Sequence record: NZ_CP118109.1
Source of the DNA: a plasmid
Direction: 5' to 3' (one strand)
Length of the DNA: 64,000 nucleotides
Part shown: positions 3,304 through 61,505 of the stretch, piece after piece
Layout: every line of letters starts with the position of its first letter
How positions within the stretch are numbered: the stretch's first letter is position 1
Position numbers and translations under genes: made by a program
Notes under the pieces: model-generated
What the model was told of the DNA's origin: nothing
What the model saw: the letters and a program-made list of their open reading frames with translations, nothing else
The model's database searches: none

Positions 3304-3525
3304 ATGCTACCGCAAGATAAGAATCGCCCAGGTTGGGCAAGAATCGATGCTCGTGTTGAGTTTGTTTATTTAGGCAAAAAGTATTTAGGTGTAGTGGAAG
3401 ATACCAGTTATACATTCTGCACATTCAAGAACATTATTGATCTTAGAAAGAACAAACCTGCAACTATTCCAAATACGATTGCGTTTGCTTATATTCAGAA
3501 TCCAATTGTCAGGACGGTGATCTGA
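3304..3525 (+). CDS. hypothetical protein
   Basis: AGGAGG RBS 3291-3296; ORF track 3265..3525 trimmed to RBS-supported ATG. Confidence 0.45.
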   Translation: MLPQDKNRPGWARIDARVEFVYLGKKYLGVVEDTSYTFCTFKNIIDLRKNKPATIPNTIAFAYIQNPIVRTVI

Positions 3526-3782
3526 TGAAAAGATCATTCATGGATATTATCGGACCTGGCTTGGATTTTATTGCAGATCGTTTCATGCTTTGCTTATTAA
3601 CGGCTGCCATTCTGGCTTCACTAGCTATTTTATTAGAACCCTTCGGCATTTTTATTATTCTTGCTGCCGCTGCTTTGTTTACATTTTATATTAGATGGGA
3701 TCTCCGAAGACAAAGTATTGAAGAGATCATTATTGAGGAGGAAGAGATTCAATGGGAAGACAAATCAAAACGACATGCTTAA
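3525..3782 (+). CDS. small membrane protein (2 TM)
   Basis: Hydrophobic segments; ATGA overlap coupling. Confidence 0.5.
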   Translation: MKRSFMDIIGPGLDFIADRFMLCLLTAAILASLAILLEPFGIFIILAAAALFTFYIRWDLRRQSIEEIIIEEEEIQWEDKSKRHA

Positions 3783-4213
3783 AATGTAACGAGACTGTAA
3801 CACTAGACTTTGGTGATGCAAACTATTCTCAAGCTTTAAAGATGGCAGAAAAGCTAGATAGGCGTGCTATGGAATGCCCTGGCTTTCATGTGGAAATCGG
3901 TGGCTGGAATAAATATTGGCAACTAAATCGCATTATTGAGGAAGCATATACTGAGGAAGAAAAGGATATATGTCGTGATATTGTAAGGCGTATCACAATT
4001 CAAATACTCGATGGCAAATATTTAGAGAAGGAACATGAGTTTGGAACTGAGAAAGAGACCGGATTATTCCTTCAAGGCCTTATAGATGGCGGACTAAAAG
4101 AAGATTCCCGCGTTCATGTAAGGCATTACAATTACTTTAAAGAAGAACTCGGAGATTATGAGGCTCCAGCGAAAACAGCACTCACTTATTTAAGCGGAAG
4201 CCATCTGTGTTGA
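3752..4213 (+). CDS. hypothetical protein
   Basis: GAGGAGG RBS; ORF track. Confidence 0.5.
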   Translation: MGRQIKTTCLKCNETVTLDFGDANYSQALKMAEKLDRRAMECPGFHVEIGGWNKYWQLNRIIEEAYTEEEKDICRDIVRRITIQILDGKYLEKEHEFGTEKETGLFLQGLIDGGLKEDSRVHVRHYNYFKEELGDYEAPAKTALTYLSGSHLC

Positions 4214-4267
4214 TCGTCGCTAACGCTCCCATGGCCTTATAGAATTAACATTACGGAGGGAATACTT

Positions 4268-4549
4268 ATGCTTATGAATATTGTAAATAAAATCGTTAAT
4301 GCAGGCACTATGAATACTATAACAGAGGCGATTAAGCCTCTTACATCCATGCAGAGGTATGAAGCACTGCGCGCAGCTTCTGAGGCACTTTCTGATGAAG
4401 TAGAATCTCAACTTACTTCTAAGAATACGCTTCTTGCTATGTGGACTATGTCAAAGCTTGCTATTATTGATGATCTGGCACTTCAGGAAGAACGTAAAGC
4501 ACATAACGTTTTGCAATATGAGCGTATCAAGGAAGAAGTAGCATTATGA
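4268..4549 (+). CDS. hypothetical protein
   Basis: GGAGGG RBS; ORF track. Confidence 0.5.
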   Translation: MLMNIVNKIVNAGTMNTITEAIKPLTSMQRYEALRAASEALSDEVESQLTSKNTLLAMWTMSKLAIIDDLALQEERKAHNVLQYERIKEEVAL

Positions 4550-4692
4550 TTTGGTATTTTATATTCGGATTCTTTGTTCTGATAGGGCAGTTTTGGCTAC
4601 TGCCCGCTGTTGTTTTATTCGCATTGATCAATCACTTTTGGAATACTCAAGTAAAGCTACCTAAATCTAAAAATAATTGGAGGAAATTATAA
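4546..4692 (+). CDS. small hydrophobic peptide (48 aa)
   Basis: ATG overlaps upstream TGA (ATGA); translated by hand MIWYFIFGFFVLIGQFWLLPAVVLFALINHFWNTQVKLPKSKNNWRKL; stop abuts next start. Confidence 0.35.
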   Translation: MIWYFIFGFFVLIGQFWLLPAVVLFALINHFWNTQVKLPKSKNNWRKL

Positions 4693-5699
4693 TGTTAGAT
4701 AAAATTAAAAGCGATATTCAAAACGCAATCTCTGTTGAAGTAGGCATGATGACTGGTAATGGTACTTATCCTGTTATCGTTCAAGATATTTCTGAGGGAT
4801 CCATTACAAAAGGATGGTCGTTAACTTATTACCCTCGGTTGCTCAATACTAATGGCCCAGAGCGCTTATATGACGGAAGAGAAGCTTTCTCTACACTCCG
4901 AATTGCTAATTTCAGCTCCCTTTATCAAGCCATTATGGGCATTGACCAGCGATTTCTGAATGGCGATTCTGTTGAGATTGGCGCAAATAATCGTAAGCGT
5001 GCCACTTATGAACTCAATGGAGCTCGTTTCTCTGCTGTTGAGTATGAAAATAGTGTATCCATTTCACTCACAATTACTCATGATAAATCTCCTCTACATA
5101 TGCTTAACATCAATTTTCGAGTAGTGGATAGCAACAAAGCACCAGGTAGTCGCTATTTAATCGGCATGGAGGACCATTGGGATCGCAATACAGATGTATT
5201 TACTGAAGAAAATGCTTCACTCACACCGAAAAAACGACGCATGCTTCAGGTTCACCAAGATAGGGCTAATGGACAAGTAACGCCTTACATTAAGACGATA
5301 GCACAACAAGGAAATCTTCCGAATACTTCGTTTGTTCATCCGGATGTGTCCCCATTCGAATACGTGCAGGATGTTCGAAATAAGTACAAGGCACTTGCCT
5401 ACATTCAAGAGCAAACCATTATAGAAATTGCAATGGAAAAAGCTCTTCAAATTGTGAATCAGCAATCGAATCAGCGGTCTCAGCATCAATCTTTTGGCTT
5501 TGGATCCCAAACATTCGGCTCTCAGCCTCCTGCTTTTAGCGCTCAGCATCCTTTTGCAGCTCAACCACTCTTTGGTCAGCAGTCGTCTTCGCAAGCGCCA
5601 CAGGCTCAACCACAAGGCTCTGCATCCCCAAATAGCTTTCAGGCGCAGTCTATGCAGTGGGGTGCTCCGGTTGATTCTGCAGGAAAGCAAATTTTCTAA
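4692..5699 (+). CDS. hypothetical protein with Q/S/F-rich disordered C-terminal tail
   Basis: GGAGGA RBS 4678-4683; ORF track frame; low-complexity tail FGFGSQTFGSQPP... Confidence 0.5.
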   Translation: MLDKIKSDIQNAISVEVGMMTGNGTYPVIVQDISEGSITKGWSLTYYPRLLNTNGPERLYDGREAFSTLRIANFSSLYQAIMGIDQRFLNGDSVEIGANNRKRATYELNGARFSAVEYENSVSISLTITHDKSPLHMLNINFRVVDSNKAPGSRYLIGMEDHWDRNTDVFTEENASLTPKKRRMLQVHQDRANGQVTPYIKTIAQQGNLPNTSFVHPDVSPFEYVQDVRNKYKALAYIQEQTIIEIAMEKALQIVNQQSNQRSQHQSFGFGSQTFGSQPPAFSAQHPFAAQPLFGQQSSSQAPQAQPQGSASPNSFQAQSMQWGAPVDSAGKQIF

Positions 5700-5828
5700 C
5701 TAGACATTGCAACTCAGGGTTCCGATGATTATTTAAAATCGGGCCTTGCATGCAGTGCCTAATTGTTTAAAATAGTATTGAACAATGGGTTAACGTGATA
5801 TAATGTAGGATAGAAGGGAGGTTTCCTC

Positions 5829-7703
5829 TTGATACAAGTGCGCAGCCAATACGATAACGTATATATTAAAATATTGGATAACATAGATACATTCGAATAT
5901 ACTTTGTCCAGAGTTCGATCTTTGCCTGGACGTGCGTTCAACATGGAAACTGGCGAGTGGATGATCTCCCGTGACAATGTTGGTGCTCTTTTGTTTAATT
6001 TTAACAATCAGATTATCTGGATGACCCCGCTTAACGAAATCGTTGCTGGATTAGACATCTATGACGAGATTGTACAGAAGCACTTACAATGGGAATCCGA
6101 AACAGAGTTCAAGAAATTTAAGCTGTTGCTATATCCATATCAAAAAGTGGGTGCAAACTTTCTTCTTGATCGAGGATCCGCTGCCGTTTTTGATGGTTGC
6201 GGTCTTGGCAAGACTCCGCAATTGATCGGCGCTTTTGAGAAAATTTTTGAACGTGGTGGCAAGCGCGGACTGATCGTCACACTTAATTCTCTTAAGAGGC
6301 AATGGGCTAAGGAAATTGAGAAGTTTACGGGTAAGCCAGCTATTCCAGTAACAGGCACATCCAAGCAGAGAGAGAAGCTCATACGTGGCTTCGCTTCACA
6401 TAAGAAGACACAATATTTGGTGATCAACTATGAAATCCTGCGGGATGAAAAACTTCGCAAACTTATTACTAGTATTCCTTTTGATGCCGTTGGATTAGAT
6501 GAGGCTCAAAAAATAAAGAATGGTGTAACAGATACCTTTTTGGATCTCAAGCCAAGCCAGATAGCTTCCGCCACTTATGAGCTAAAATATATTCCTCATC
6601 GGTTTATTGCTACTGCTACACCTATGCAGGGTAAAGCAGAAGAGGTGTGGAGTCTGTTCTACTTCGTTAATGAACATATACTCGGTGATTGGTATGCTTT
6701 TCGTGAAAGATACTGCGAGTATAGCAAGCGATATGGGATTACAGGCTACAAAGAGCTTGGAGAACTTTATTATCGCATTGCGCCTTACTTTATACGGAGA
6801 ACGAAAGAGAACCCAGAAGTACAACAGCAATTGCCTAAAGTTACAGATGATCCAATCTTCCTTGATATGACCGATAAGCAAGCACAACTTCATGATTATC
6901 TTCTGGATAAGTACATGGAAGTTAAAGAGACAGCTAAGAAGATTTCCTCTAGCCCGGATCAGTATCATTTTATCGCCGGCAAAAGCATGTCTAAAGAGGA
7001 GGCGAAGGAATATTACGATGCATTAGCTCAAGGCTATCAAATATTTATGCTGAGTGCTTGTGATTCTCCGCAGCTTCTTACAATGTCCGATTCATCCATG
7101 GCGCAAGGCATACTGAAGGATATCTCTTTGTCCGAGAAAGACCTTAAATCACCAAAGGTGGATCATATTGTTCAGTTCTATGAGCAAATGCTTTATGATG
7201 AGCCAAAGTCTAAGGTTGTTATATTCACTCAGTTTGCCCGTATGGCTGAGCTTATTCATAGCAAGCTCAAGCAATCGGTGGTATTCCATGGAAAGATGAA
7301 TGACAACGCGAAGGAATTTGCTAAAGAGCAATTCGTTAATAATCCGAACATTAAGGCCATTGTGTGTACCGATGCTGGAAGCACTGGACTGAATTTGCAG
7401 GTTGCCAACTATATGATTCATGCTGACTTGCCTTGGGATCCTACTTTAGTTGAGCAGCGGAATGGCCGCATTGATCGCACAGGCAATAAGTTTAGCAACA
7501 TCAACATCTATTATTTGATCATGAATAACGGATACGACGAGCATCTGCTGAATATTCTCGAGCGTAAATCATCGATGGCCAATACAGTTATTGATGGCGG
7601 CAAGTCAACCGCCTCATCAAAGAACATAAGCAAGCTTGCAATGGAAAACATGATCAAGGAAAGAAAAAAATCTTCTCAGGGTCTTGTAACTGTTGGAGGT
7701 TAG
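5829..7703 (+). CDS. SNF2-family (SF2) helicase
   Basis: Walker A CGLGKTPQ, DEAQ box (LDEAQKIKN), motif III ATATP, C-terminal helicase motifs QRNGRIDRTGN. Confidence 0.8.
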   Translation: MIQVRSQYDNVYIKILDNIDTFEYTLSRVRSLPGRAFNMETGEWMISRDNVGALLFNFNNQIIWMTPLNEIVAGLDIYDEIVQKHLQWESETEFKKFKLLLYPYQKVGANFLLDRGSAAVFDGCGLGKTPQLIGAFEKIFERGGKRGLIVTLNSLKRQWAKEIEKFTGKPAIPVTGTSKQREKLIRGFASHKKTQYLVINYEILRDEKLRKLITSIPFDAVGLDEAQKIKNGVTDTFLDLKPSQIASATYELKYIPHRFIATATPMQGKAEEVWSLFYFVNEHILGDWYAFRERYCEYSKRYGITGYKELGELYYRIAPYFIRRTKENPEVQQQLPKVTDDPIFLDMTDKQAQLHDYLLDKYMEVKETAKKISSSPDQYHFIAGKSMSKEEAKEYYDALAQGYQIFMLSACDSPQLLTMSDSSMAQGILKDISLSEKDLKSPKVDHIVQFYEQMLYDEPKSKVVIFTQFARMAELIHSKLKQSVVFHGKMNDNAKEFAKEQFVNNPNIKAIVCTDAGSTGLNLQVANYMIHADLPWDPTLVEQRNGRIDRTGNKFSNINIYYLIMNNGYDEHLLNILERKSSMANTVIDGGKSTASSKNISKLAMENMIKERKKSSQGLVTVGG

Positions 7704-47311: not shown

Positions 47312-48652
47312 ATGACTATGACACTTGAACATGATATTGATTTAGATAAGAAGGTTGACCTGCAGCTGGCTGATGATGCGAATAAGGTAAGAAAGATAAC
47401 AATTAAGACTGCTGAGCTATTAAAAGCAGTGAGACGAGCTGTATCCATTGTTAACCATAATCATTCAACTCTTGTATTGCAAAATATATTCTTTGCTACT
47501 ACAGATAACGGAATTATTTTACGAGCTGTAAACGACAGCTTTTCTGTAGAAACAACAATCGATCCGGCACATTGCGTGATTGAAGATGATCCGAGATCTG
47601 TTTTGTTTCCAGCTAAGCGTCTTTTAGATATTGTCAGTAAAATGAGCGGAAAGAATACGACGATCTTTATTCGGGATAATTTCATTCGAATCAAGTCAGG
47701 TCGAGCTAATATGGATATTGGAGTCCAGGATGCAGACGAGTTCCCAAAACTGCCTCAGATCAAGAAAGGAAACACTTTCGAAATCGCTGCTGATGCATTG
47801 CTTGATATGTACACTCGTACAGTATTTGCAACCTCTAAGCTTGAAAGCATGCCTGTTTTGCAGGGCGTACTACATGACATTGAAGATCAAAGATTCCGCT
47901 GTATTGCAACGGATCGTCATCGTTTTGCGCAGGTCTATCATCCGACAACTATTGAGTGTGAGCCAATGCGTGTCAGCGTTCCTGCAATAACAATCAATGA
48001 AGTTATGAAGCATCTGAAAGAAAAGAAGGCTGATACGATCAAGGTTACAGTCAAAGACACTCGTGTAGTATACGATATGAACGATACTGTCCTTTACTCC
48101 CAGGTATTAGAAGGCACATATCCGGATACAAATCGAATCATCCCTACTGGAGCTAAGGCTACTGTGACAGTTCCTAATTCAGAGTTCCTAGGCGCAGTGA
48201 AGCGGGCAGCTATCTTTTTGGATGATTCTAATTCTTCTAAAATAACAATCATGATTGATGGCGAAAAGAACCAGATGCGCATTCAATCACTGGATAGTGA
48301 TGAAGGCACAATGTTAGAAGATATGGTAACACTAAAAGGAGAGGGCGGGTTTGCTTCATCCACGATGAATGGTCGTTATCTGCTTGAGTCCCTAAGCAGG
48401 ATTGGTGGCACTGCTCATGTTGAGATTAAGATGACATCAACAATGCCTTTTCTCTTAAGAGAAGCTAATGCTCTTGAAGGTAATGTAAATGTCGTTGTGC
48501 CTGTTAAGCATAGACTTGATAGCTCGAAATCTATCGAAAACTTTACGTCAAATTATAACGAAGAAGAAGCTGATCCTTTTGCTGGTCGTGCAGAGGAATA
48601 CGCTGAGCAGCAAGCTTCTGAGGCTACTGAAAGCCAAGAAGGAGCAGCTTAA
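47312..48652 (+). CDS. dnaN: DNA polymerase III beta sliding clamp (DnaN-like) with acidic C-terminal extension
   Basis: Three-domain length; ATDRHRFA (DnaN ATDGHRLA), domain-I N-terminal pattern. Confidence 0.75.
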   Translation: MTMTLEHDIDLDKKVDLQLADDANKVRKITIKTAELLKAVRRAVSIVNHNHSTLVLQNIFFATTDNGIILRAVNDSFSVETTIDPAHCVIEDDPRSVLFPAKRLLDIVSKMSGKNTTIFIRDNFIRIKSGRANMDIGVQDADEFPKLPQIKKGNTFEIAADALLDMYTRTVFATSKLESMPVLQGVLHDIEDQRFRCIATDRHRFAQVYHPTTIECEPMRVSVPAITINEVMKHLKEKKADTIKVTVKDTRVVYDMNDTVLYSQVLEGTYPDTNRIIPTGAKATVTVPNSEFLGAVKRAAIFLDDSNSSKITIMIDGEKNQMRIQSLDSDEGTMLEDMVTLKGEGGFASSTMNGRYLLESLSRIGGTAHVEIKMTSTMPFLLREANALEGNVNVVVPVKHRLDSSKSIENFTSNYNEEEADPFAGRAEEYAEQQASEATESQEGAA

Positions 48653-48687
48653 TCAATTTATCTTAAAATAACGCTTGATTTTAGCTT

Positions 48688-48701
48688 GTAACGTGTTATA
48701 A
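48688..48701. promoter_or_regulatory. dyad motif TGTAACGTGTTATA (copy 7a)
   Basis: Recurring motif family. Confidence 0.5.
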
Positions 48702-48709
48702 TTCAAAAT

Positions 48710-48723
48710 GTAATGCGTTACAA
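48710..48723. promoter_or_regulatory. dyad motif TGTAATGCGTTACA (copy 7b, near-perfect palindrome)
   Basis: Recurring motif family. Confidence 0.6.
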
Positions 48724-48750
48724 GCTCATGCTAATAGGGGGCTAATAACG

Positions 48751-48969
48751 ATGACAGCAATGACAGTTGAAGATATGTATGCAATGAAACCAGTAGGCAG
48801 TGTGATTCCTTTCTTTAATTTCACCGGATATAAATCAGGTGATTCTGTGCAGGTGGCTGACGGCGCTTATGACTACGACAACAAGGTGTATGTCGTAGAA
48901 GGAAGCCGAATACAGCATATCTGGCATAATGAAGAGAATCAAATGGCATTTGAATTTGAAGGGATTTGA
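48751..48969 (+). CDS. hypothetical protein
   Basis: ORF track. Confidence 0.45.
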   Translation: MTAMTVEDMYAMKPVGSVIPFFNFTGYKSGDSVQVADGAYDYDNKVYVVEGSRIQHIWHNEENQMAFEFEGI

Positions 48970-49208
48970 AGTACATGAACTTCGACGTTCAGCGTTCAAT
49001 ATTTGCAACAAATGCATTCGCTTCAGAATTTCCGGAACAGCATACTCAGCTCTGGAAAGAGTTTGAAGAAAAGGTTCCACAGGTAAATCGGATTGGCTAT
49101 TATGGCGCAGATAATGTGGCTTATATAGGCTGGCTCCGTAGCACGAAGAATGCACTCTTTAATTCATTTTTGCAATCCAATATTGCAACAAAGCATTTTG
49201 ATGCATGA
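48966..49208 (+). CDS. hypothetical protein
   Basis: ORF track. Confidence 0.45.
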   Translation: MKYMNFDVQRSIFATNAFASEFPEQHTQLWKEFEEKVPQVNRIGYYGADNVAYIGWLRSTKNALFNSFLQSNIATKHFDA

Positions 49209-49558
49209 TATAAGAATGTGGTGGCGGAAGAGAGACGCTTAGGTCTAAGGCAGATACGACTCGGTGAGCCCCGGCGCAATTCTCAGAGAGGCGGACTAGA
49301 AACCGCGCTGTAGAAACGTAGAGCCGGATTAGGGCCGTGGGAACCTGTAAGGGGAAGTCAGTTAGGCTGCTACCCGTGATGATGAAATGCTGCTATGCAA
49401 GGGAGAATGGCCCTTGCCCACATTCTTGCTCTCATTCAGCGCACAAGAGTACTGTCCCCCCGGTCTTGAGGACAGCGGCTTGCAACTGAAACCGGTAAAG
49501 GAGCCGACCTTGTGCGTTGAATGAGGGTCTTTTATTCACCCTTTTTTTCCCCTCATCT
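49209..49558 (+). ncRNA. candidate structured non-coding RNA (GC-rich, ends in intrinsic terminator at ~49525-49558)
   Basis: ~350 nt without credible ORF; GC content clearly above flanks; terminal AGGGT-loop-ACCCT + TTTTTTT. Confidence 0.35.
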
Positions 49559-49835
49559 AAGAACTATAAAGGGTAGGTTATCTGATTTAGCCGTAGGAAG
49601 TCTGGAGTTATTCGTTAGTAGGTTTGTAGGCGCTGCAGAGCCGATCACTGAGGACGGTAGCCTGGATGGACTATTCAAAAATCAGACGACAGTATGCAAA
49701 AACTGACGTTACACAACAGCCAGGACCGAACCTGCAAAAAAGGCGATGAAGAGAGGCAAAAGATGGGCCCTCCGCGACAACCTAGGGGTGTGATGAGGGT
49801 TGTCATGATCATACTGGATGTGAGTCTGCCATGAT

Positions 49836-49908
49836 AGCTTAATTGGGAAAGCGCATGACTGAGAATCATGAGATGCGGTTCAATTCCGATGTGGTGGCAT
49901 TCTAGTAT
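49836..49908 (+). tRNA. tRNA-like element (non-canonical; D-arm and anticodon arm fold, loop CUGAGAA; weak T-stem)
   Basis: GCCATGA acceptor, GCTT/AAGC D-stem, CATGA/TCATG anticodon stem, GGTTCAATTCC T-loop; T-stem only 3 bp; no CCA. Confidence 0.3.
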
Positions 49909-50167
49909 GATTCACTTATGTAGGCGCACTGATGATCTTGTCCGGTTCCGCAAGCCACGCTGATGCGGGTAGACTGGTCTTGTATCGAATCTGAGAGAGT
50001 AAATAGTGGATTAGAAACGGGCGGCTTAAATGACCGGCAACGCGTGGCTTGCCGGCATCATAAGCTGGAGTGTTTCGGCTCCGTTTGCATCCCTTGCTTT
50101 GCGACAGCAGTTAGTCACACGAAACGCAGAACCCTTAGTGACTTTCAGTGCGCTACATAGATTTGTC

Positions 50168-50245
50168 CGGAATAGCTTAACGGTAGAGCGCTCGTATAAA
50201 CCCATACGAGAGATCAGAGGTTCGATTCCCGTTTCCGGCTTCTGC
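50168..50245 (+). tRNA. tRNA-like element (GGTTCGATTCC T-loop; aberrant anticodon arm)
   Basis: TCCGGAA/TTCCGGC acceptor pairing 6/7, GCTT/GAGC D-stem, 7-bp anticodon-region stem with 6-nt loop. Confidence 0.25.
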
Positions 50246-50803
50246 ATTTAGCATACAAGTAAAGACCGTAGATCAGCCAGAGACCTCTGTATTATTTACT
50301 TGAAAAGGTGCGTTGTGTACGAAACTTTTCAAGTAAACAATATAGGCAAGTAGCGAAAGCTATTATAAGTCCAATTGTTTTCTGGTGCATGGATGCTTAA
50401 ATGGGATCAGGTGCAACAAGTGCCAATGGCAGGGTAGAAGACTCGAATCGGTTGCTTTAAGTTTCCGTTTATCGGATCGGATGGATGCTTGAACAGTAAT
50501 GTTCTTGATCGTGAAAAACACCTTTCATCCTATATGCTTAAAGACCTGCAGCTTGTATGTTAAATGGAGAAAGTTTGTGGGGCGGATTAAGTCTCAATGG
50601 ATTGGACGAGGGCGAAGCTTACTATTAATTTCAGGTAGGATCTTCAGGCATCGAGCAGTTGGGTGTCTGAAGACTATCTTTAAATCCTATATGCCGAAAG
50701 GCCAAGGCTTAATGACCCTAACGAAAACTTTCCGAGACTCACAGGTGATCTGCAGTCGGGTAAGCGGTAAAGACCGGCGTACATAATATAAAGGAGGCTT
50801 CCT

Positions 50804-51109
50804 ATGAATATCCCTGAAATTAGGCTCCGTAATGGAAAATTAGCTACATATAAATCATCCAGGCAAACGCGGATTCCTGATATGGGTATTAACGAATTAA
50901 CGGAAGTCCATAGTTTTCGTATCCCTTGCCCAGTATGTGATTACAATGAAGATAATATTGCCGTTTCACAAGACGGCATTGTCTTTCTAAATAGCCAGAT
51001 TGTCTGCCGGTTCTGTGGAGTATTTTTCCGTCCGGTAATAGATCCTGCATTCATAAAAGAGCAGCGGCTTGTCCGCTCGACTATATCCCAAAATGAAGCC
51101 GCCAAATAA
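50804..51109 (+). CDS. zinc-binding hypothetical protein
   Basis: AAAGGAGG RBS; CPVCDYNED...CRFCG. Confidence 0.5.
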   Translation: MNIPEIRLRNGKLATYKSSRQTRIPDMGINELTEVHSFRIPCPVCDYNEDNIAVSQDGIVFLNSQIVCRFCGVFFRPVIDPAFIKEQRLVRSTISQNEAAK

Positions 51110-51374: not shown

Positions 51375-51436
51375 CTTGCCATTTTTGCAAAAAAGTTTTA
51401 TTCTAACTGTTGAGAATTGTCGAGGGGAGAATAGAA

Positions 51437-52270
51437 ATGATTAATAATATTGATGCCAGTGACTTAGACTCTCTCATAAGTCAGCTAAAAAACACTTTTT
51501 CATTTGGTGACTGGGATAAGATTATACTTTTAGCTGAAAAACTTATAGAGAAAACTAATGTTATTAATAATATAACGAAGATGACTGGTGTTAATTTTAA
51601 TCAAGCAGAGAGAAGCCTGGTTTATTATTATGGCTTCGCATATATGGCTATTGGATCAGCTTACGAACATAAGTGTGATTTCTCTAGGGCCAGAGAATGG
51701 GCTCTTAAATATAGGGACTGGTCTTCTGTTTCATCGCCAACTTCTGAGGATATCAGATGGATGAATCATTGGACTAAATTGTCTGAAATTAATGTGATTG
51801 TTGTCGATCTCCTTATGGGAAAAAATGAAGCTCTTGATCAAATTGCTGATTATATATTGGAGCATCCTGAAGATGCCCTAGCCGGATTAATCACAATGCT
51901 CGATGCTGCAAACAAAAATGATATAAATATTGATCATGTCCTTGCTCGTATTCCAGATGATTTCTGGCAGAACGATAAAAGCACAGGTGTTGTCAACATG
52001 TCTTATCAGTATAGATTTTTTCGCCAACTATCCCTTTACAAACAAAAATGTAATGAGTTACATTTTTGTTTAGAAAATCTCTTGCGCGCTTTATCATTAG
52101 CTGATAAAATGAAAAACGTAGATGACTTTAAGGAATGTATTCAAGTTTTTGAATCTCTTAAAGATCACGCCGACAAGCGTCAAGAGAAAAAATATAACCG
52201 GATAGTAAAGGGAGCGATTAGGCATGAAAAAGTTGTTTCTATCAGCATTGCTAACATTAGGGATTCTTAG
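51437..52270 (+). CDS. TPR-like all-helical protein, candidate RRNPP-type (Rap/AimR/PlcR-like) peptide receptor lacking obvious HTH
   Basis: SLVYYYGFAYMAIGSAYEHKCDFSRAREWALKY TPR signature; GAGGGGA RBS; 3' end overlapped by secreted-peptide ORF. Confidence 0.45.
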   Translation: MINNIDASDLDSLISQLKNTFSFGDWDKIILLAEKLIEKTNVINNITKMTGVNFNQAERSLVYYYGFAYMAIGSAYEHKCDFSRAREWALKYRDWSSVSSPTSEDIRWMNHWTKLSEINVIVVDLLMGKNEALDQIADYILEHPEDALAGLITMLDAANKNDINIDHVLARIPDDFWQNDKSTGVVNMSYQYRFFRQLSLYKQKCNELHFCLENLLRALSLADKMKNVDDFKECIQVFESLKDHADKRQEKKYNRIVKGAIRHEKVVSISIANIRDS

Positions 52271-52376
52271 CGTAACAGCAGGCGCTGTGAGCGCATCGGA
52301 CGTAACTAAGCCTGTGGTTGTATCTAACCAAGAGGATGCAGTTATTACTACTATGACCTTTGGTTGGGGTTCTTAA
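52224..52376 (+). CDS. secreted pro-peptide (50 aa) with Sec signal peptide; candidate signalling peptide (C-terminal ...MTFGWGS)
   Basis: AAGGGAG RBS; MKK + hydrophobic core + AVSA-SD cleavage site; overlaps receptor 3' end in alternate frame as in rap-phr/aimR-aimP. Confidence 0.4.
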   Translation: MKKLFLSALLTLGILSVTAGAVSASDVTKPVVVSNQEDAVITTMTFGWGS

Positions 52377-52397
52377 TTCAAACCACATATTCTATAT

Positions 52398-52434
52398 AAA
52401 AAGAGCTGATCGTTTATTGTTCGGCTCTTTTTTA
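52398..52434 (+). terminator. intrinsic terminator
   Basis: AAAAGAGC...GCTCTTTT stem + TTTTATTT. Confidence 0.6.
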
Positions 52435-52442
52435 TTTCATAT

Positions 52443-52456
52443 TGGAATGCATTACA
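52443..52456. promoter_or_regulatory. dyad motif TGGAATGCATTACA (copy 8) immediately upstream of RBS of 52475 gene
   Basis: Recurring motif family. Confidence 0.55.
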
Positions 52457-52474
52457 TATAAGGAGGTTTTGTAG

Positions 52475-52702
52475 TTGAGTGATAAGAGATACATCCTATT
52501 TACAAGAGAAGGTAGTAGTGAGGTTCGTGCAGACGATACCCAGAAGCGTTATTTCGATCCGCCAGGAAGAGATCATATTATTTTTGGATTTGATAATCAG
52601 AAAGCTATGGCTAGAAAGGCTAATGAACTCCTACGAGATGGTTGCACATTGCTTACCCGCGGAGGAAGAGAGCAGCTGAGGATTTTTAAATCCTATATAT
52701 AA
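52475..52702 (+). CDS. hypothetical small protein (TTG start) downstream of peptide cassette
   Basis: AAGGAGG RBS; ORF track. Confidence 0.45.
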   Translation: MSDKRYILFTREGSSEVRADDTQKRYFDPPGRDHIIFGFDNQKAMARKANELLRDGCTLLTRGGREQLRIFKSYI

Positions 52703-53650: not shown

Positions 53651-53740
53651 ATATTTTACGTGTTACTATGAAAATATTAGTAACATTAGTTCAAAATACC
53701 TGCTATAATGAAAAGCGGAAAATTAAGAGGAGGAAGAAAG

Positions 53741-54517
53741 ATGGAAGACTTTAGTGCTATTTTATTGTTTGTTTCACTCATTGCTATGGTCGCATTTTTA
53801 GTTTTATCAGTGGTTTCTAAGATTAAGAAAGATGGCAAAGCTAAGCGGAAGCTAATGTATGCGGGTGGATCTTTCGTCGTAATGATCGCATCTTTTATTA
53901 TGTTTGGTAGCGTGACTTCTGGCACGACTACAACCGCTGATCCTGCTCCTGCTGTTGAGCAACCAAAGGCTGAAACAGTAAAGCTTTCACCTGAAGAAGA
54001 AGCGGCCATAAAGGAAGAAGCAGAGGCAGCTGCGAAGGCTAAAGCAGAGGAAGAGGCTAAAGCGAAAGCTGAAGCTGAGGAAAAGGCAAAGGCTGAAGCA
54101 GAAGCTAAAGCAAAGGAAGAAGCTGAAGCAAAGGCTAAAGCAGAAGCGGAAGCTAAGGCTGCAGCTGAGGCGGCGGCTCAAGCAGAGGCTGATAAGAAAG
54201 CAAATGCTCAAACAATTGAATATCCGCATCTTTCAAAGAATCCTGACCGTTACGCAGGGGAGTATGTTACATACACCGGCGAAATTGTTCAAATATTAGA
54301 GAGCGGCGAGTTTACTAATATCAGACTTGCTGTAACTCAGGATGAATGGGGATATAACTACAACGACCTCATCTTCATTGAATACGAGGGATTAACTGAC
54401 TTTGTTGATGGTGATGTTGTAACGGTCTATGGTGAGATCTACGGGGCTTATTCGTACACATCACAGGCAGGTTGGGAGATCACCCTGCCTGGTCTAGTAG
54501 CTGACACTGTAGAATAA
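53741..54517 (+). CDS. membrane-anchored protein with Ala/Glu/Lys-rich (EAKAKAEAE) repeat linker and C-terminal globular domain
   Basis: AAGAGGAGGAAG RBS; TM helix; tandem GAAGCTAAAGC-type repeats 53990-54200. Confidence 0.5.
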   Translation: MEDFSAILLFVSLIAMVAFLVLSVVSKIKKDGKAKRKLMYAGGSFVVMIASFIMFGSVTSGTTTTADPAPAVEQPKAETVKLSPEEEAAIKEEAEAAAKAKAEEEAKAKAEAEEKAKAEAEAKAKEEAEAKAKAEAEAKAAAEAAAQAEADKKANAQTIEYPHLSKNPDRYAGEYVTYTGEIVQILESGEFTNIRLAVTQDEWGYNYNDLIFIEYEGLTDFVDGDVVTVYGEIYGAYSYTSQAGWEITLPGLVADTVE

Positions 54518-54596: not shown

Positions 54597-54691
54597 AATT
54601 AAAAATGCATCAAAATACTGACAGGTATTATCATGGTGAGGGCCGCCTTTGTGCGGCTTTTCCCATGTATATCATCATATGGGGGATTCCT

Positions 54692-55738
54692 ATGTCAAAT
54701 AAGGTATATAATGACTCATTGTATAACGAGGATGTGAAATTAAAGTTCCTAGAGTTAATGAAAAAGAATGGTTGTTCTGAAAATACATTAGTTACATATA
54801 AGCGAGTTTTTCTACGCGCATCTGGATTAGAAAAAAGATTTAAGACGGATCTGTATGATTTTACATTCGAATATATAGAAAAACTCTTAATCAAGATGAA
54901 TCATACAACATTAAACTCCGCAATAAGCAGCATTAGCATCATAAGAAGTTACATTGATTGGGCGATACAGAACAAGTACAGAAAGGTGCCTTTAAGCCCA
55001 CTGGACGTATTCACTACGAAGGAATTGGCCCAGCGATACAAGAACAAACGAGTAAGAGTATATTTTACACATGCTGAAGTGCAAAAGTTTGCAGATAGCG
55101 CTGTGAATGCGCAGGATAAGGCTCTCATTTGGGCAATGTTTCATGGTATATGTGGAAATGGGATGGCAGAACTAAGGAATCTTACGTTGTATGATATTGA
55201 TCAGCATAACTATAAATTGACTCTTAAGGACGATGATTCAGAGAGAGTTATTGAACTCATCTCAGATGAACAAAAAAAATTGATCGACCACCTTCTTAAA
55301 GCCCATGAGCAAACTCATTATCTAAAGGGAAACGGAAAGTCTGTTGCTAAAAACCCTATCGGTTTCTTAGCAAAAAATAACCATGTATTTAGGCCTATGA
55401 TTCGTGGAGACAGTTCTACTGCTTCTTATCATGTTTTAAGAAATAGACTTGTAGATATATCAAAAATCAACGAAGAGCCGCAACTAACTTCCCCTATTTC
55501 GTTAAGATATAGTGGGATGCTTTATATGGCTTATTGTGAATATCAAAAGCATGGGGCGTTGAGTCTTGAGTCCATAAAGAGAATTTCAGATTTCTATGCT
55601 ATCAGTAAAGTAACTGATTCCAAATATGACAACTTCTTTATTCGAAGAGAATTTTTAACCGAAGAAACGATCATAAAGGAATATCTCTCTGGAGACGAAG
55701 GAGAAGAAGACTATGGAGTTGATGCAAAGATATTTTGA
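54692..55738 (+). CDS. tyrosine-recombinase/integrase-like protein (SAM-like core-binding domain; divergent catalytic region)
   Basis: N-terminal core-binding-like helices (FLELMKKNGCSENTLVTYKRVF...); HVLRNR and terminal Y candidates; start after TGGGGGAT. Confidence 0.35.
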   Translation: MSNKVYNDSLYNEDVKLKFLELMKKNGCSENTLVTYKRVFLRASGLEKRFKTDLYDFTFEYIEKLLIKMNHTTLNSAISSISIIRSYIDWAIQNKYRKVPLSPLDVFTTKELAQRYKNKRVRVYFTHAEVQKFADSAVNAQDKALIWAMFHGICGNGMAELRNLTLYDIDQHNYKLTLKDDDSERVIELISDEQKKLIDHLLKAHEQTHYLKGNGKSVAKNPIGFLAKNNHVFRPMIRGDSSTASYHVLRNRLVDISKINEEPQLTSPISLRYSGMLYMAYCEYQKHGALSLESIKRISDFYAISKVTDSKYDNFFIRREFLTEETIIKEYLSGDEGEEDYGVDAKIF

Positions 55739-57048: not shown

Positions 57049-58092
57049 TTAACGAAGCAATTGAAGAACTGCTTGTGGTTGTTGGTTTGCTTGAGCCAAC
57101 ATTGCTTGAGCTGCTTGGGAAAGAATCGAGTTCTTAGTTTGCTCAACCATTTCTTTCGCCATGTCAACGTCACGAATACGGGATTCAGATGCTGTCAGGT
57201 TCTCTGCTGTTGTACCCAGGTTATTTACTGTGTGCTCCAAACGGTTTTGTACGGAACCCAATTTAGAACGCTCAGCAGATACGCTCTCGATCGCTGCGTT
57301 AATTGTAGTGATTGCTGTATCAGCGTCTTCTTGGTTAGAAATGTTGATACCAGCGTTTACTTTTGCTTCATCAGCATATGCTTCGTCAACTTTGACAACC
57401 ATTTTGTCGCCATCGTAGTAACCAGCTACAACAACATCATCTTCGGTTGCCTTTCTAGTTGTACCATTACCACTGCCATCGTCAATGTCGTCTCCGACAT
57501 TAACTGCTTCTTTAAAAGTAAGTGTAGTTGTTCCGGCAGTCAAAGTTGCAGTAGTGCCATCGTTATCAGATGTGTACTCTGTGCTTACTTTCAGCGCTTC
57601 AGCGCCCATGTCACTAATTGAAAGACTAATGCTTTGACCTGCATTTGCTCCGATTTGGAATGTAACATTTTCAGCAGAACCATTGATCAGCTTTTTCGTA
57701 TTGAACTCAGTGTCTGTAGAGATACGAGTCAATTCTTCAGCTAATTGGTTTACTTCTTTTTGAAGCTCTGCGCGGTCGGAATCCGTGTTTGTGTCAGATG
57801 CTGATTGAACTGCCAGCTCACGCATACGTTGCAGGATAGAATGAGATTCATTCAATGCACCTTCAGCTGTCTGGATCAGTGAGATACCATCTTGAGCGTT
57901 ACGAGAAGCTTGCTCAAGACCGCGGATTTGTCCACGCATTTTTTCGGAGATTGCAAGACCCGCTGCGTCATCACCAGCACGGTTGATGCGAAGACCGGAA
58001 GACAATTTCTCCATGTTTTTTCCTTGTGCAGAGTTAGCTGCGCCCAGGCTGCGTTGAGTGTTAATCGCCGCAATGTTGTGATTGATAATCAT
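57049..58092 (-). CDS. hag: flagellin (Hag/FliC family)
   Basis: N-terminal [16 protein letters not shown]...[30 protein letters not shown] and C-terminal [14 protein letters not shown]...[25 protein letters not shown], near-identical to B. subtilis Hag D0/D1; GGAGGT RBS. Confidence 0.95.
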
Positions 58093-58150: not shown

Positions 58151-58348
58151 TTAGAGCGGCAGTCCATTTTGTCTGCAGAGCTCTTTTTGTTCGTCTGACA
58201 AGATCTCTTCCCTGAGTATCTTAACGTCATTCGGAGCAGTTATTTCTAACTTTGGATTGCCGTAATCATCGACCTTCACTTTAATATGTATGGAATTGCC
58301 GATAATGATCGACTCACCCGCTCTTCTGTTGACTGTTAATTTTCCCAT
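58151..58348 (-). CDS. csrA: carbon storage regulator CsrA (flagellin translation regulator)
   Basis: MGKLTVNRRAGESIIIGNSIHIKV...ITAPNDVKILREEI matches CsrA (LVLTRKVGESIVIGDDIEITV...APKEV-V-REEI); directly upstream of hag as in B. subtilis. Confidence 0.8.
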   Translation of the reverse strand: MGKLTVNRRAGESIIIGNSIHIKVKVDDYGNPKLEITAPNDVKILREEILSDEQKELCRQNGLPL

Positions 58349-58382
58349 GCCGACTACCAACTTCCCTATTGTGATAGTTATT

Positions 58383-58409
58383 TTATCGGCGGGATCCGGA
58401 AATAGTTTA
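58383..58409 (-). promoter_or_regulatory. sigmaD (sigma-28, flagellar) promoter TAAA-N15-GCCGATAA driving csrA-hag
   Basis: Minus-strand TAAA (58409-58406), 15-nt spacer, GCCGATAA (58390-58383) vs consensus TAAA-N15-GCCGATAT. Confidence 0.65.
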
Positions 58410-58445
58410 TACCATTTTAAAAAAATTTTATTGGAGCTGATAAAT

Positions 58446-58790
58446 ATGAAATATAACCCTACTCTACTCAACGTTTTTAATCTTAATAAATTTGATCCTC
58501 GTGAGTTAACGTATAGCGAAAAAATGCTGGTCGAGGAATATCTTGGCGAAATCTTAGAGGAACAATATTCCGGAGACATCCAAGAAATTATCCATTATCA
58601 AGATAAACGCATTACATTTAGCGAGGATTCTGAAGGCTTCAAACTGCCCCTAGCAAACGATCTACCACTTGAATATAACCTATGGAATATAAATAGTTTA
58701 TTCGCCTATGGAGAGGCTGATATGGAGCTTGTGGCGGTCTTAGAGAATCCCGAAAATACAATGAATCAGGTGATGGTTAGTATGTATTAA
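58446..58790 (+). CDS. hypothetical acidic protein (divergent from csrA)
   Basis: ATG 58446 after GGAGCTGA; ORF track frame. Confidence 0.4.
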   Translation: MKYNPTLLNVFNLNKFDPRELTYSEKMLVEEYLGEILEEQYSGDIQEIIHYQDKRITFSEDSEGFKLPLANDLPLEYNLWNINSLFAYGEADMELVAVLENPENTMNQVMVSMY

Positions 58791-60508: not shown

Positions 60509-61483
60509 TTACAAAAATTTTTCTGCTGTAGTAACACAAATAATTGCATCATTATTGTTGGTCAAATCTCTAAAGATGTTAAGAATTTGCTTCGAATGAT
60601 AATTATCAATCCATTCTGCAGCGAATGGCGCAGGCGCAAGCACCACCAGTTTGTTATCTTCGAAGAACCCAAAAGTCTCTTTAAACCATGTGCCAAATGT
60701 AACGGCGCTTATAGATCGTTTCAAGATATCTTCGATCTCACTCCATAAGTGAATGTCTTGAGGTGTTCGATTCAGGAACAGCTCTTCACGTTTTTTGTTG
60801 ATCCTTACTTCCAACGGAGCGGTGACTTCAATTGATCCAGGTGTTCTAGCTCTCCCCTTCTCATGCAGCTTCTTAATCTCGTCTTCATGATCATTATTCT
60901 CTGGGAGCATAACCTCGTTAGACTCAAAAAGTTTTTCCATAAAGCGATTATGTTGAAGGAGTAGCCACTCAGGCAGCTGCTTCAGCTCTGCCTCACTTAA
61001 GAAAGGAACGGTCTGTCTTACTTTCACTCGAGTGCTATCATTCATTCCCTTTTTCTTTTTACTCTCTGCCCAGAACCGCATAACAAAACCGTAGTCTTCA
61101 AGTTTACTTAGGTATTTAATCAGTGTAACACGACTGATCCCCATCATTTCTGCCATGTGTTCTTGTGACATATGAGGGATTGATTCGTTGAATGAAAGGC
61201 TCAGATAATTTATGTAGGTCATGGTAGCTTCTGGCCCAAGAAAGTATTGCCAAAATTTAATCAGATAATTGTGAACGGTGGTTTTGTTGCCTGGTGTGTA
61301 AGGCAGTGAAAGACCCAAGTTCTCGAGCGAATAACTAGTGACATCTTTTTCAGTGTAATAGATCTTCCTCGTCTCCTCGACCATTTCCTCAATGCTCTCC
61401 CCGTTAACTTTTCTTTTTCGCGGCACCTTATTTCCCGTCTTTTCATAGCGGAAATAATGTATGTCATTCGTGCTGTCGCCCAT
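60509..61483 (-). CDS. replication initiator: N-terminal RepA_N-like wHTH plus C-terminal DnaA domain-I-like domain
   Basis: HTH MSQEHMAEMMGISRVTLIKYLSKLEDYGFV; C-terminal LWSEIEDILKRSISAVTFGTWFKETFGFFEDNKLVVLAPAPFAAEWIDNYHSKQILNIF aligns with B. subtilis DnaA N-terminus ([25 protein letters not shown]...LTITAPNEFARDWLESRYLHLI); start set at ATG 61483 behind GAGGAGG. Confidence 0.6.
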   Translation of the reverse strand: MGDSTNDIHYFRYEKTGNKVPRKRKVNGESIEEMVEETRKIYYTEKDVTSYSLENLGLSLPYTPGNKTTVHNYLIKFWQYFLGPEATMTYINYLSLSFNESIPHMSQEHMAEMMGISRVTLIKYLSKLEDYGFVMRFWAESKKKKGMNDSTRVKVRQTVPFLSEAELKQLPEWLLLQHNRFMEKLFESNEVMLPENNDHEDEIKKLHEKGRARTPGSIEVTAPLEVRINKKREELFLNRTPQDIHLWSEIEDILKRSISAVTFGTWFKETFGFFEDNKLVVLAPAPFAAEWIDNYHSKQILNIFRDLTNNNDAIICVTTAEKFL

Positions 61484-61505
61484 CTTCAAAGACCTCCTCA
61501 AGTAA

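Follow-up and report, generated by a model that had tools for sequence, protein, structure and literature searches.

A probable Alo-type peptide signalling cassette with a receptor lacking a helix-turn-helix domain on a large replicon of Paenibacillus urinalis

Introduction

What does a gene for a short tetratricopeptide-repeat (TPR) protein do on a large extrachromosomal replicon, when its 3' end is overlapped by an unannotated open reading frame (ORF) that starts with a signal peptide? The question is raised by a stretch of 64,000 nucleotides of the plasmid record NZ_CP118109.1 (hereafter, the window), whose TPR protein is identical to PUW25_25985 from a 214,846-bp replicon of Paenibacillus urinalis, labelled as a plasmid by NCBI; our view of the element is thus that of a 64-kb window of a replicon of ca. 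215 kb. A preliminary description, made from the sequence and its ORFs, had proposed a phage communication cassette resembling arbitrium, with the TPR protein as the receptor of a secreted peptide and possibly as a new RRNPP-like variant. In our view, the two genes probably make up a peptide-based quorum-sensing cassette and belong to the Alo family (AloR/AloP), an RRNPP-type family specific to Paenibacillaceae; the receptor would sense an exported and trimmed peptide and act through a protein partner.

Results

A TPR receptor gene overlapped by an unannotated pro-peptide gene

The receptor gene runs from an ATG at 51437, with GAGGGGAG 7 nt upstream, to a stop at 52270. This gives a product of 277 amino acids and not the 278 initially reported, while its position and its all-helical nature had been described correctly. 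The stretch flagged as a TPR signature also holds: residues 62-91 align with the sole stretch of an AloR7 orthologue that passes Pfam TPR_2 (31.7 bits for a cut-off of 27). Across 39 family members, Y64 and G66 are invariant and G73 and Y92, the latter just beyond the TPR motif, are at least 90% conserved. An AlphaFold2 model of the receptor is a solenoid of 13 helices (predicted local distance difference test, pLDDT, 86; predicted template modelling score, pTM, 0.76), and in structural comparisons it scored 10.4 with the Rap protein of phage phi105, 10.2 with RapI, 10.0 with the Rap protein of pLS20, 9.4 with NprR and 9.3 with AimR of SPbeta. Because these scores are not above those of unrelated TPR proteins, the structure speaks for a TPR solenoid and for nothing further.

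The last 47 nt of the receptor gene are overlapped, in another frame, by the 50-amino acid ORF, whose product is MKKLFLSALLTLGILSVTAGAVSASDVTKPVVVSNQEDAVITTMTFGWGS. As anticipated in the preliminary description, this ORF has its own ribosome-binding site, AAAGGGAG, 9 nt upstream of its start, and a Sec-type signal peptide, which we called by eye from its n-region, its h-region and a V-S-A site at positions -3/-1. It is not annotated in the GenBank record, where locus tags and accessions pass directly from PUW25_25985 to PUW25_25990. The proposed terminator is also in place: a hairpin at 52398-52432, followed by a run of T, folds with -15.4 kcal/mol (z = -5.35). It was retrieved by RNA folding, whereas a simple terminator scan did not pick it up. 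At the other end of the cassette, a possible sigma-A promoter (Table 1) is only a candidate, because promoter-like sites in the region are not more abundant than expected from shuffled sequence.

The cassette belongs to the Alo family

Searches of Pfam, PHROGs and NCBIfam gave no match for the receptor, for the 50-amino acid peptide or for the 75-amino acid protein encoded downstream. Likewise, sequence searches of the PDB with the single receptor sequence, with a clade profile or with a protein of Brevibacillus phage SecTim467 (see below) retrieved only spurious matches to designer pentatricopeptide-repeat proteins, and megablast of the locus against phage and plasmid collections found no match.

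A profile search of 1.84 billion representative sequences retrieved 246 clusters with two architectures, short proteins of 260-295 amino acids and long proteins of 440-490 amino acids, the latter with ca. 190 extra N-terminal residues that match XRE-type helix-turn-helix (HTH) proteins. Short receptors without a DNA-binding domain account for about half of the Alo-like clusters retrieved. The TPR domain of the window clade aligns end to end with the long forms, residues 7-272 falling onto 195-464 (hhalign probability 100%, E 5e-50), and the window ORF scores 316 bits with the family profile. In BLASTP, the receptor is 27% identical over 270 amino acids (E 4e-38) to the AloR7 orthologue, that is, the receptor encoded 5' of a peptide identical to the published AloP7.

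Scanning one genome per species yielded 80 loci, often several per genome, of which 78 were titled Paenibacillus, one Brevibacillus and one Priestia; 79 of these 80 genomic relatives thus belong to the Paenibacillaceae, as does the host of the window, P. urinalis. In 48 of the 80 loci, an ORF with a signal peptide overlaps or abuts the 3' end of the receptor gene, typically by 43-52 nt, and the encoded peptides end in the motif x-[H/F/N]-G-[AVMW]-[GNDE]-x or, in a looser form, x-[H/F/N]-G-x-x-x. Several of these peptides are already in Table S1 of Voichek et al. 2020 (PMC7425212): those from two loci (L015 and L018) are identical to published AloP7 sequences, that from L008 is an Alo17 peptide, and those of the NHGWN type resemble Alo15 alleles. 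The small ORF of the window also agrees with what is known of Alo downstream ORFs, which have 32-50 amino acids and an N-terminal hydrophobic signal sequence, since it has 50 amino acids with MKK, a hydrophobic core and AVSA. At the level of the superfamily, the receptor is predicted to be cytoplasmic, with a C-terminal TPR or TPR-like peptide-binding domain, as are RRNPP receptors.

Together, these comparisons place the cassette within the published Alo family; it does not represent a system of a new kind. The pairing of an RRNPP-type receptor with a pro-peptide ending in a pheromone-like C-terminus, as initially proposed, is supported by this homology and by the conservation of the peptide end. 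Conversely, the suggestion of a new RRNPP-like variant must be abandoned, the receptor falling into a short clade with Alo7, Alo15, Alo17 and Alo18. Studies with RRNPP_detector had already reported Alo and other candidate systems on plasmids and phages of Paenibacillaceae, including Brevibacillus phage SecTim467; the supplementary text of Bernard et al. 2023 contains no sequences matching the short clade for its 'novel cluster 8'.

Some members of the family differ in the number or location of their signals. In several pro-peptides the motif is repeated (L009-L011, 4773-4937; L008, 4803-4940), with NHGANY three times (L009 among them) or NHGANS twice; with two or three motifs in one precursor, several copies of the signal could be released. 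Also, short cassettes of the NHGWN type (Alo15-like) occur on small replicons or contigs, namely the 9.3-kb plasmid pUY79 (L037), a 6-kb scaffold (L020) and a 10.8-kb contig (L024), which suggests that small plasmids of several Paenibacillus species also carry short Alo systems.

The cassette recurs in related elements

Close homologues of the receptor are few, with only five among 5.8 billion proteins. The relatives' loci available for comparison were those of three close homologues plus one contig from IMG/VR (L002, L005, L006 and L007), the homologue from Paenibacillus sp. TCA20 coming without a contig. Within this window clade the receptors show 43-64% identity, and each of the four loci contains the receptor gene, a small ORF with a 47-nt overlap and a terminator hairpin. 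The hairpins are unrelated in sequence, with z values from -4.6 to -7.2, and in L002, L005 and L006 they occupy the equivalent place; the terminator is thus conserved in its function. Because the receptor gene, the ORF overlapping by 47 nt and the terminator recur in all four loci, the cassette is more than a chance arrangement. The sole neighbour kept in all five elements is the 101-amino acid CxxC...CxxC protein encoded upstream; its identity is 73% in L002, L005 and L007; in L006 it is 58%, and there the gene adjoins that of the receptor. Pfam, PHROGs and NCBIfam assigned it to no family.

The small ORF is under selection and encodes a conserved C-terminus

Alignment of the pro-peptides of the window clade showed a conserved signal peptide, a variable spacer and a conserved end, which is TFGWGS, NFGWGA or NHGWGV. 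Insertions and deletions fall in the spacer and are multiples of three, thus keeping the frame. The G-W-G core is invariant despite changes at the third position of its codons, and wobble-only changes are also found through the c-region of the signal peptide. In the part of the small ORF that does not overlap the receptor gene, the ratio of nonsynonymous to synonymous substitution rates (dN/dS) was 0.08-0.32 in the closer pairs. The conserved ends, the wobble-only changes and these ratios indicate that the small ORF is a translated gene under purifying selection.

The validated pro-peptide of the family, AloP13 from Paenibacillus polymyxa, matures to the C-terminal hexamer SHGRGG, which acts on AloR13 at 10 nM to 5 μM (PMC7425212). 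By homology with Alo13, the signal of the window is most likely its own C-terminal hexamer, TFGWGS. The window peptide carries F at the position usually occupied by H, as does the peptide of locus L042 (GFGVNH). In a tree of 38 receptor-peptide pairs, the types of peptide followed the clades of receptors. As an exploratory and weak observation, residues I29, Y69, T74, L90 and N227 are shared by two non-sister clades with Trp-containing peptides; these five columns compare with 0-2 in clades of equal size, a mild enrichment.

Most short receptors fall in one clade without a DNA-binding domain

We found no HTH in the receptor by Pfam, alignment or tblastn, in agreement with the preliminary description, nor did Pfam detect one in a further six short receptors, among them the AloR7 orthologue and proteins like those of Alo15, Alo17 and Alo18. 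We also considered that the HTH might be encoded by a gene split from that of the TPR domain, and rejected this: tblastn with 59 long-form N-terminal domains had no hit in the window or beside the other short forms, and a long-form hidden Markov model matches in the window only the receptor ORF. The receptor thus lacks the HTH expected of an Alo receptor, and so do, judging from their length, four published Alo clades, because the receptors of Alo7, Alo15, Alo17 and Alo18 have 275-297 amino acids (Table S1 of PMC7425212). These lengths, together with the HTH-less short representatives, imply that an HTH is not a valid criterion for the Alo family as published.

Of the 48 short forms in a neighbour-joining tree of 107 representatives, 41 grouped in one clade, with the window clade inside it. 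This topology indicates that the short AloR proteins are a distinct and old HTH-less subfamily, which includes the Alo7-, Alo15-, Alo17- and Alo18-like receptors, and that by analogy would stand to the long AloR proteins as Rap does to NprR.

No neighbour was common to all short-form loci, apart from an XRE-family gene in one group. Alo18-like orphan short receptors, which have no pro-peptide gene, are accompanied by a divergent XRE-family gene (Pfam HTH_3, 6e-19) some 170-650 nt upstream, coding for 108-131 amino acids (e.g. 115). It is found in 16 Alo18-like orphan loci (among them L046, L048, L049, L053-L055, L059, L061-L064, L067, L071, L077 and L080) and in two that bear a peptide gene (L030 and L033), and it is absent from the window clade. 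Some short forms may therefore pair with a separate HTH protein, the HTH plus TPR architecture then being divided between two genes.

Discussion

A probable Rap-like mode of action for an Alo receptor

The receptor and pro-peptide genes would form a single operon ended by the terminator. Following the Alo and RRNPP systems, the 50-amino acid product would be exported via Sec and cut after AVSA, and then trimmed extracellularly to a C-terminal peptide, most likely TFGWGS. This peptide would be re-imported to bind the concave face of the 277-amino acid TPR receptor, as in other RRNPP systems. Having no recognisable DNA-binding domain, the receptor is predicted to be unable to bind DNA itself, and for that reason its most likely output is a protein-protein interaction controlled by the peptide, the receptor sequestering or activating a regulator in a Rap-like manner; we infer both the partner and the phenotype. 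A spo0E-like gene was rejected as the output, as we found none within the window.

The closest known systems are Alo7, Alo15, Alo17 and Alo18 of P. polymyxa (PMC7425212). They match the window in the length and domain composition of the receptor, which is 27-30% identical and has no HTH, in a 43-52-nt overlap with a downstream signal-peptide ORF, and in a peptide ending in x-H-G-x-x-x, with a Trp common to the NHGWN alleles and the window peptide. Unlike them, the window clade lies on a separate branch, at a syntenic site of extrachromosomal elements of ca. 200 kb, and its peptides end in GWG[SAV], with F replacing the near-universal H in the window. AloR13/AloP13, the validated pair, belongs to the same family, and its secreted pro-peptide carries the signal SHGRGG in its last six residues, for which TFGWGS would be the equivalent. 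AloR13 differs in its length of 457-473 amino acids and in its N-terminal XRE-type HTH, and also in that it activates an adjacent spo0E-like gene that the peptide turns off.

The family also reaches phages, as indicated by the sole receptor match in the phage collection, gp69 of Brevibacillus phage SecTim467, a 474-amino acid 'putative DNA-binding protein' with 26% identity over the whole TPR domain (E 2e-13). In contrast to the window receptor, gp69 has the long architecture, with an XRE-type HTH. A spo0E-like gene is located just 5' of its gene, and the ORF annotated as overlapping that gene lacks a signal peptide. SecTim467 (L001) carries two HTH plus TPR AloR-like genes in tandem, at 3479-4843 and 5422-6846, with the spo0E-like gene between them at 5115-5270.

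Rap receptors bind proteins and not DNA, and Rap-Phr systems are often found on plasmids and phages. The systems RapI-PhrI of ICEBs1, Rap-Phr of pLS20 and Rap of phage phi105 resemble the window in having a TPR receptor without an HTH and an overlapping, downstream phr-like gene. However, there is no sequence homology, and the window receptor is some 100 residues shorter than Rap (about 380 amino acids, with an N-terminal three-helix bundle plus TPR), so that the likeness would be one of mechanism, by analogy, and not of membership. Likewise, the receptor falls outside PlcR-PapR and NprR-NprX, as it is no HTH plus TPR transcription factor with homology to PlcR or NprR.

Several points weigh against a complete Alo-type circuit with TFGWGS as its signal. 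All Alo receptors have been described with an N-terminal HTH (PMC7425212), so that the short forms have no experimental precedent, and our trees are neighbour-joining trees only. The structural model resembles unrelated TPR proteins as well as RRNPP receptors, and its top matches are not RRNPP receptors. The alignment of TFGWGS with SHGRGG is imperfect, because the window has F where nearly all its relatives have H, and the mature pheromone could be longer than the hexamer. No protein could be singled out as the partner; the neighbours that are conserved are the 101-amino acid Zn-ribbon-like protein and a 96-amino acid protein. Lastly, export, trimming, re-import and binding are steps carried over from the Alo family and from RRNPP systems in general.

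Alternative roles for the receptor and its neighbours

A more ambitious version of the Rap-like model is that the short AloR clade represents a second, independent Rap-like invention, in which the DNA-binding half was lost and the receptor serves as anti-repressor or anti-activator of the lifestyle switch of the element; we regard this as unlikely. The target of the receptor would be, for example, an MrpR-like repressor acting on the repeated dyad described below, or the Rep initiator. If this were true, induction, copy number or transfer of a phage-plasmid of ca. 215 kb would depend on cell density through TFGWGS.

It is rather improbable that the receptor is instead a decoy or modulator, which would titrate peptides or heterodimerise with full-length AloR proteins of the host and allow the element to eavesdrop on, or to dampen, host Alo signalling. 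Paenibacillus genomes do contain many AloR paralogues with similar xHGxxx peptides, the short form retains the whole TPR domain and no dedicated output gene is kept beside the cassette. In RRNPP proteins such as AimR and PlcR, the TPR domain also mediates dimerisation. Yet the cassette has its own pro-peptide, co-diversified with the receptor, which fits better with a self-contained signal-receptor pair. Besides, the age of the short clade and its wide distribution over chromosomes show that it is not a degenerate fragment.

An arbitrium-like scheme, the direction taken in the preliminary description, is very improbable. Spelled out, the receptor would regulate transcription from the dyad, and the 75-amino acid gene would be an aimX analogue in the lysis-lysogeny switch of a temperate phage; we consider this largely refuted because the receptor has no DNA-binding domain. 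The gene order, in which a receptor gene is followed by an overlapping pro-peptide gene, a terminator and a small gene, does recall aimR-aimP-aimX of SPbeta-like phages, whose pro-peptide also starts with a signal peptide and carries its signal as a C-terminal hexapeptide. Moreover, the element likewise encodes an MrpR-like protein, 2.2 kb downstream of the cassette, SPbeta links MrpR with arbitrium (PMC10516654), and a close relative's 96-kb contig appears in IMG/VR. In contrast, the receptor has no homology to AimR, neither an HTH nor a long-form N-terminal domain is found in the window, and the peptide motif differs. In the stretches fetched from the relatives' loci, neither Pfam on called genes nor tblastn retrieved the MrpR-like gene. 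The phage nature of the element is unproven, and the supposed phage origin finds no backing in an NCBI record that says plasmid or in a window devoid of virion genes.

The genes and motifs invoked as output do not behave as parts of the cassette either. Downstream of the terminator come the dyad at 52444-52455, AAGGAGG and the 75-amino acid ORF; the terminator thus intervenes before the putative aimX, and in three relatives (L002, L005 and L007) its homologue, 49% identical, is not adjacent but lies ca. 1 kb further, past two other genes. In the 4-kb contig L006 we found no homologue, so that the window clade shows no conserved aimX-like target. The dyad is indeed located before the 75-amino acid gene, as reported, but it is not specific to the cassette: its consensus, GTAAYGCRTTAC, has 29 matches with up to two mismatches in the window, for 7.3 expected, and a -10-like box precedes it by 4-6 nt at 9 or more sites, a typical operator position. 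Furthermore, the copy 5' of 48751 is kept in relatives while that at 52444 is missing from the equivalent place. The dyad is hence a general element and not the operator of the cassette. It has the appearance of an operator for a global repressor, much like the repeated 15-bp element (SPBRE) that MrpR of SPbeta binds at about ten promoters (PMC10516654), and by the same analogy the MrpR-like protein is a reasonable candidate for its binder.

Finally, it is scarcely credible that there is no signalling pair at all, the small ORF coding for a secreted or membrane peptide (toxin or envelope) and the TPR protein being a co-transcribed, unrelated scaffold or chaperone; TPR folds are generic and the top structural matches are not RRNPP receptors, but the receptor is homologous to a family whose member Alo13 responds to a C-terminal hexapeptide (PMC7425212), a short conserved C-terminal motif after a variable spacer, at times even repeated, is typical of pheromone precursors, and peptide types follow receptor clades.

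Under the preferred reading, that of an Alo cassette with a Rap-like receptor, Alo-type signalling is carried at a conserved site of plasmid or phage-like replicons of ca. 200 kb. The advance is modest. What is new here is an unannotated pheromone gene, with a predicted signal, TFGWGS, on a large mobile element from a Paenibacillus species that is occasionally clinical, and an unrecognised HTH-less clade of receptors, with subclades that each have their own type of peptide. If the short forms act via protein partners, they would parallel the split between Rap and NprR, and the change in receptor output becomes testable.

Surroundings of the cassette

Table 1. Location of the cassette, its parts and other features in the window.
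Feature	Position	Strand	Remarks
Possible sigma-A promoter of the cassette, TTGCCA, 17 nt, TATTCT	51376..51404	+	Consensus scan, 9/12 matches; weak
Short HTH-less AloR-like TPR receptor, 277 amino acids	51437..52270	+	PUW25_25985, WDI05021.1
Best-conserved TPR motif, receptor residues 62-91, YYYGFAYMAIGSAYEHKCDFSRAREWALKY	51620..51709	+	Family conservation and alignment with the AloR7 orthologue
AloP-like pro-peptide gene, 50 amino acids	52224..52376	+	Overlaps receptor gene; kept in L002, L005, L006, L007
Predicted Sec signal peptide: MKK, LFLSALLTLGILSV, TAGAVSA, cleavage before SD	52224..52295	+	Inspection
Predicted mature pheromone, C-terminal hexapeptide TFGWGS	52356..52373	+	Conserved end; alignment with AloP13 peptide SHGRGG
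Intrinsic terminator closing the predicted two-gene operon	52398..52438	+	RNA fold and T-run
101-amino acid CxxC...CxxC (Zn-ribbon-like) protein, PUW25_25975	50804..51109	+	Upstream of receptor in all five elements
Dyad GGAATGCATTAC	52444..52455	.	Copy of repeated operator-like element; neighbour, probably outside the cassette
75-amino acid gene, TTG start, PUW25_25990	52475..52702	+	Neighbour, not a conserved cassette output
Dyad 12-mers in the window	780, 13095, 13130, 18653, 22092, 28861, 34344, 48710, 52444, 62902		
269-amino acid protein: N-terminal membrane segment, Ala/Glu/Lys-rich repeats	53708-54517	+	C-terminal match to PHROG 26645 (2e-34)
MrpR-like (SPbeta YopR-type) protein, tyrosine-recombinase fold	54605-55738	+	Pfam MrpR_N_CB 2e-23, MrpR_C_cat 3e-14
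Full-length flagellin and CsrA-domain protein	57049-58092, 58151-58579	-	NCBIfam Hag 5e-110; Pfam Flagellin_N, Flagellin_C
Rep-like initiator	60509-61501	-	
tRNA-Leu(GAG)	49827-49898		
Second tRNA-like match	50166-50240		Rfam only, 36.9 bits

The window is mostly occupied by a module for replication and nucleotide metabolism, which includes helicases, a primase, DnaN, a clamp-loader-like ATPase and a UvsX-like recombinase, as well as radical S-adenosylmethionine activase-like and thymidylate-synthase-like proteins. The MrpR-like gene is part of a 3.5-kb stretch (52.9-56.0 kb) that is missing from two of the relatives, L002 and L005, and its product has homologues in large temperate Bacillus siphoviruses, such as Tsamsa. 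A flagellin and CsrA pair is also found near the cassette in L006 (3287-4077), an unusual cargo for a plasmid or a phage. Lastly, the ca. 2 kb at 48650-50800 contain no long ORF and are kept in part in L002, L005 and L007; besides the tRNA gene and the tRNA-like match listed in Table 1, this region may hold further RNA genes.

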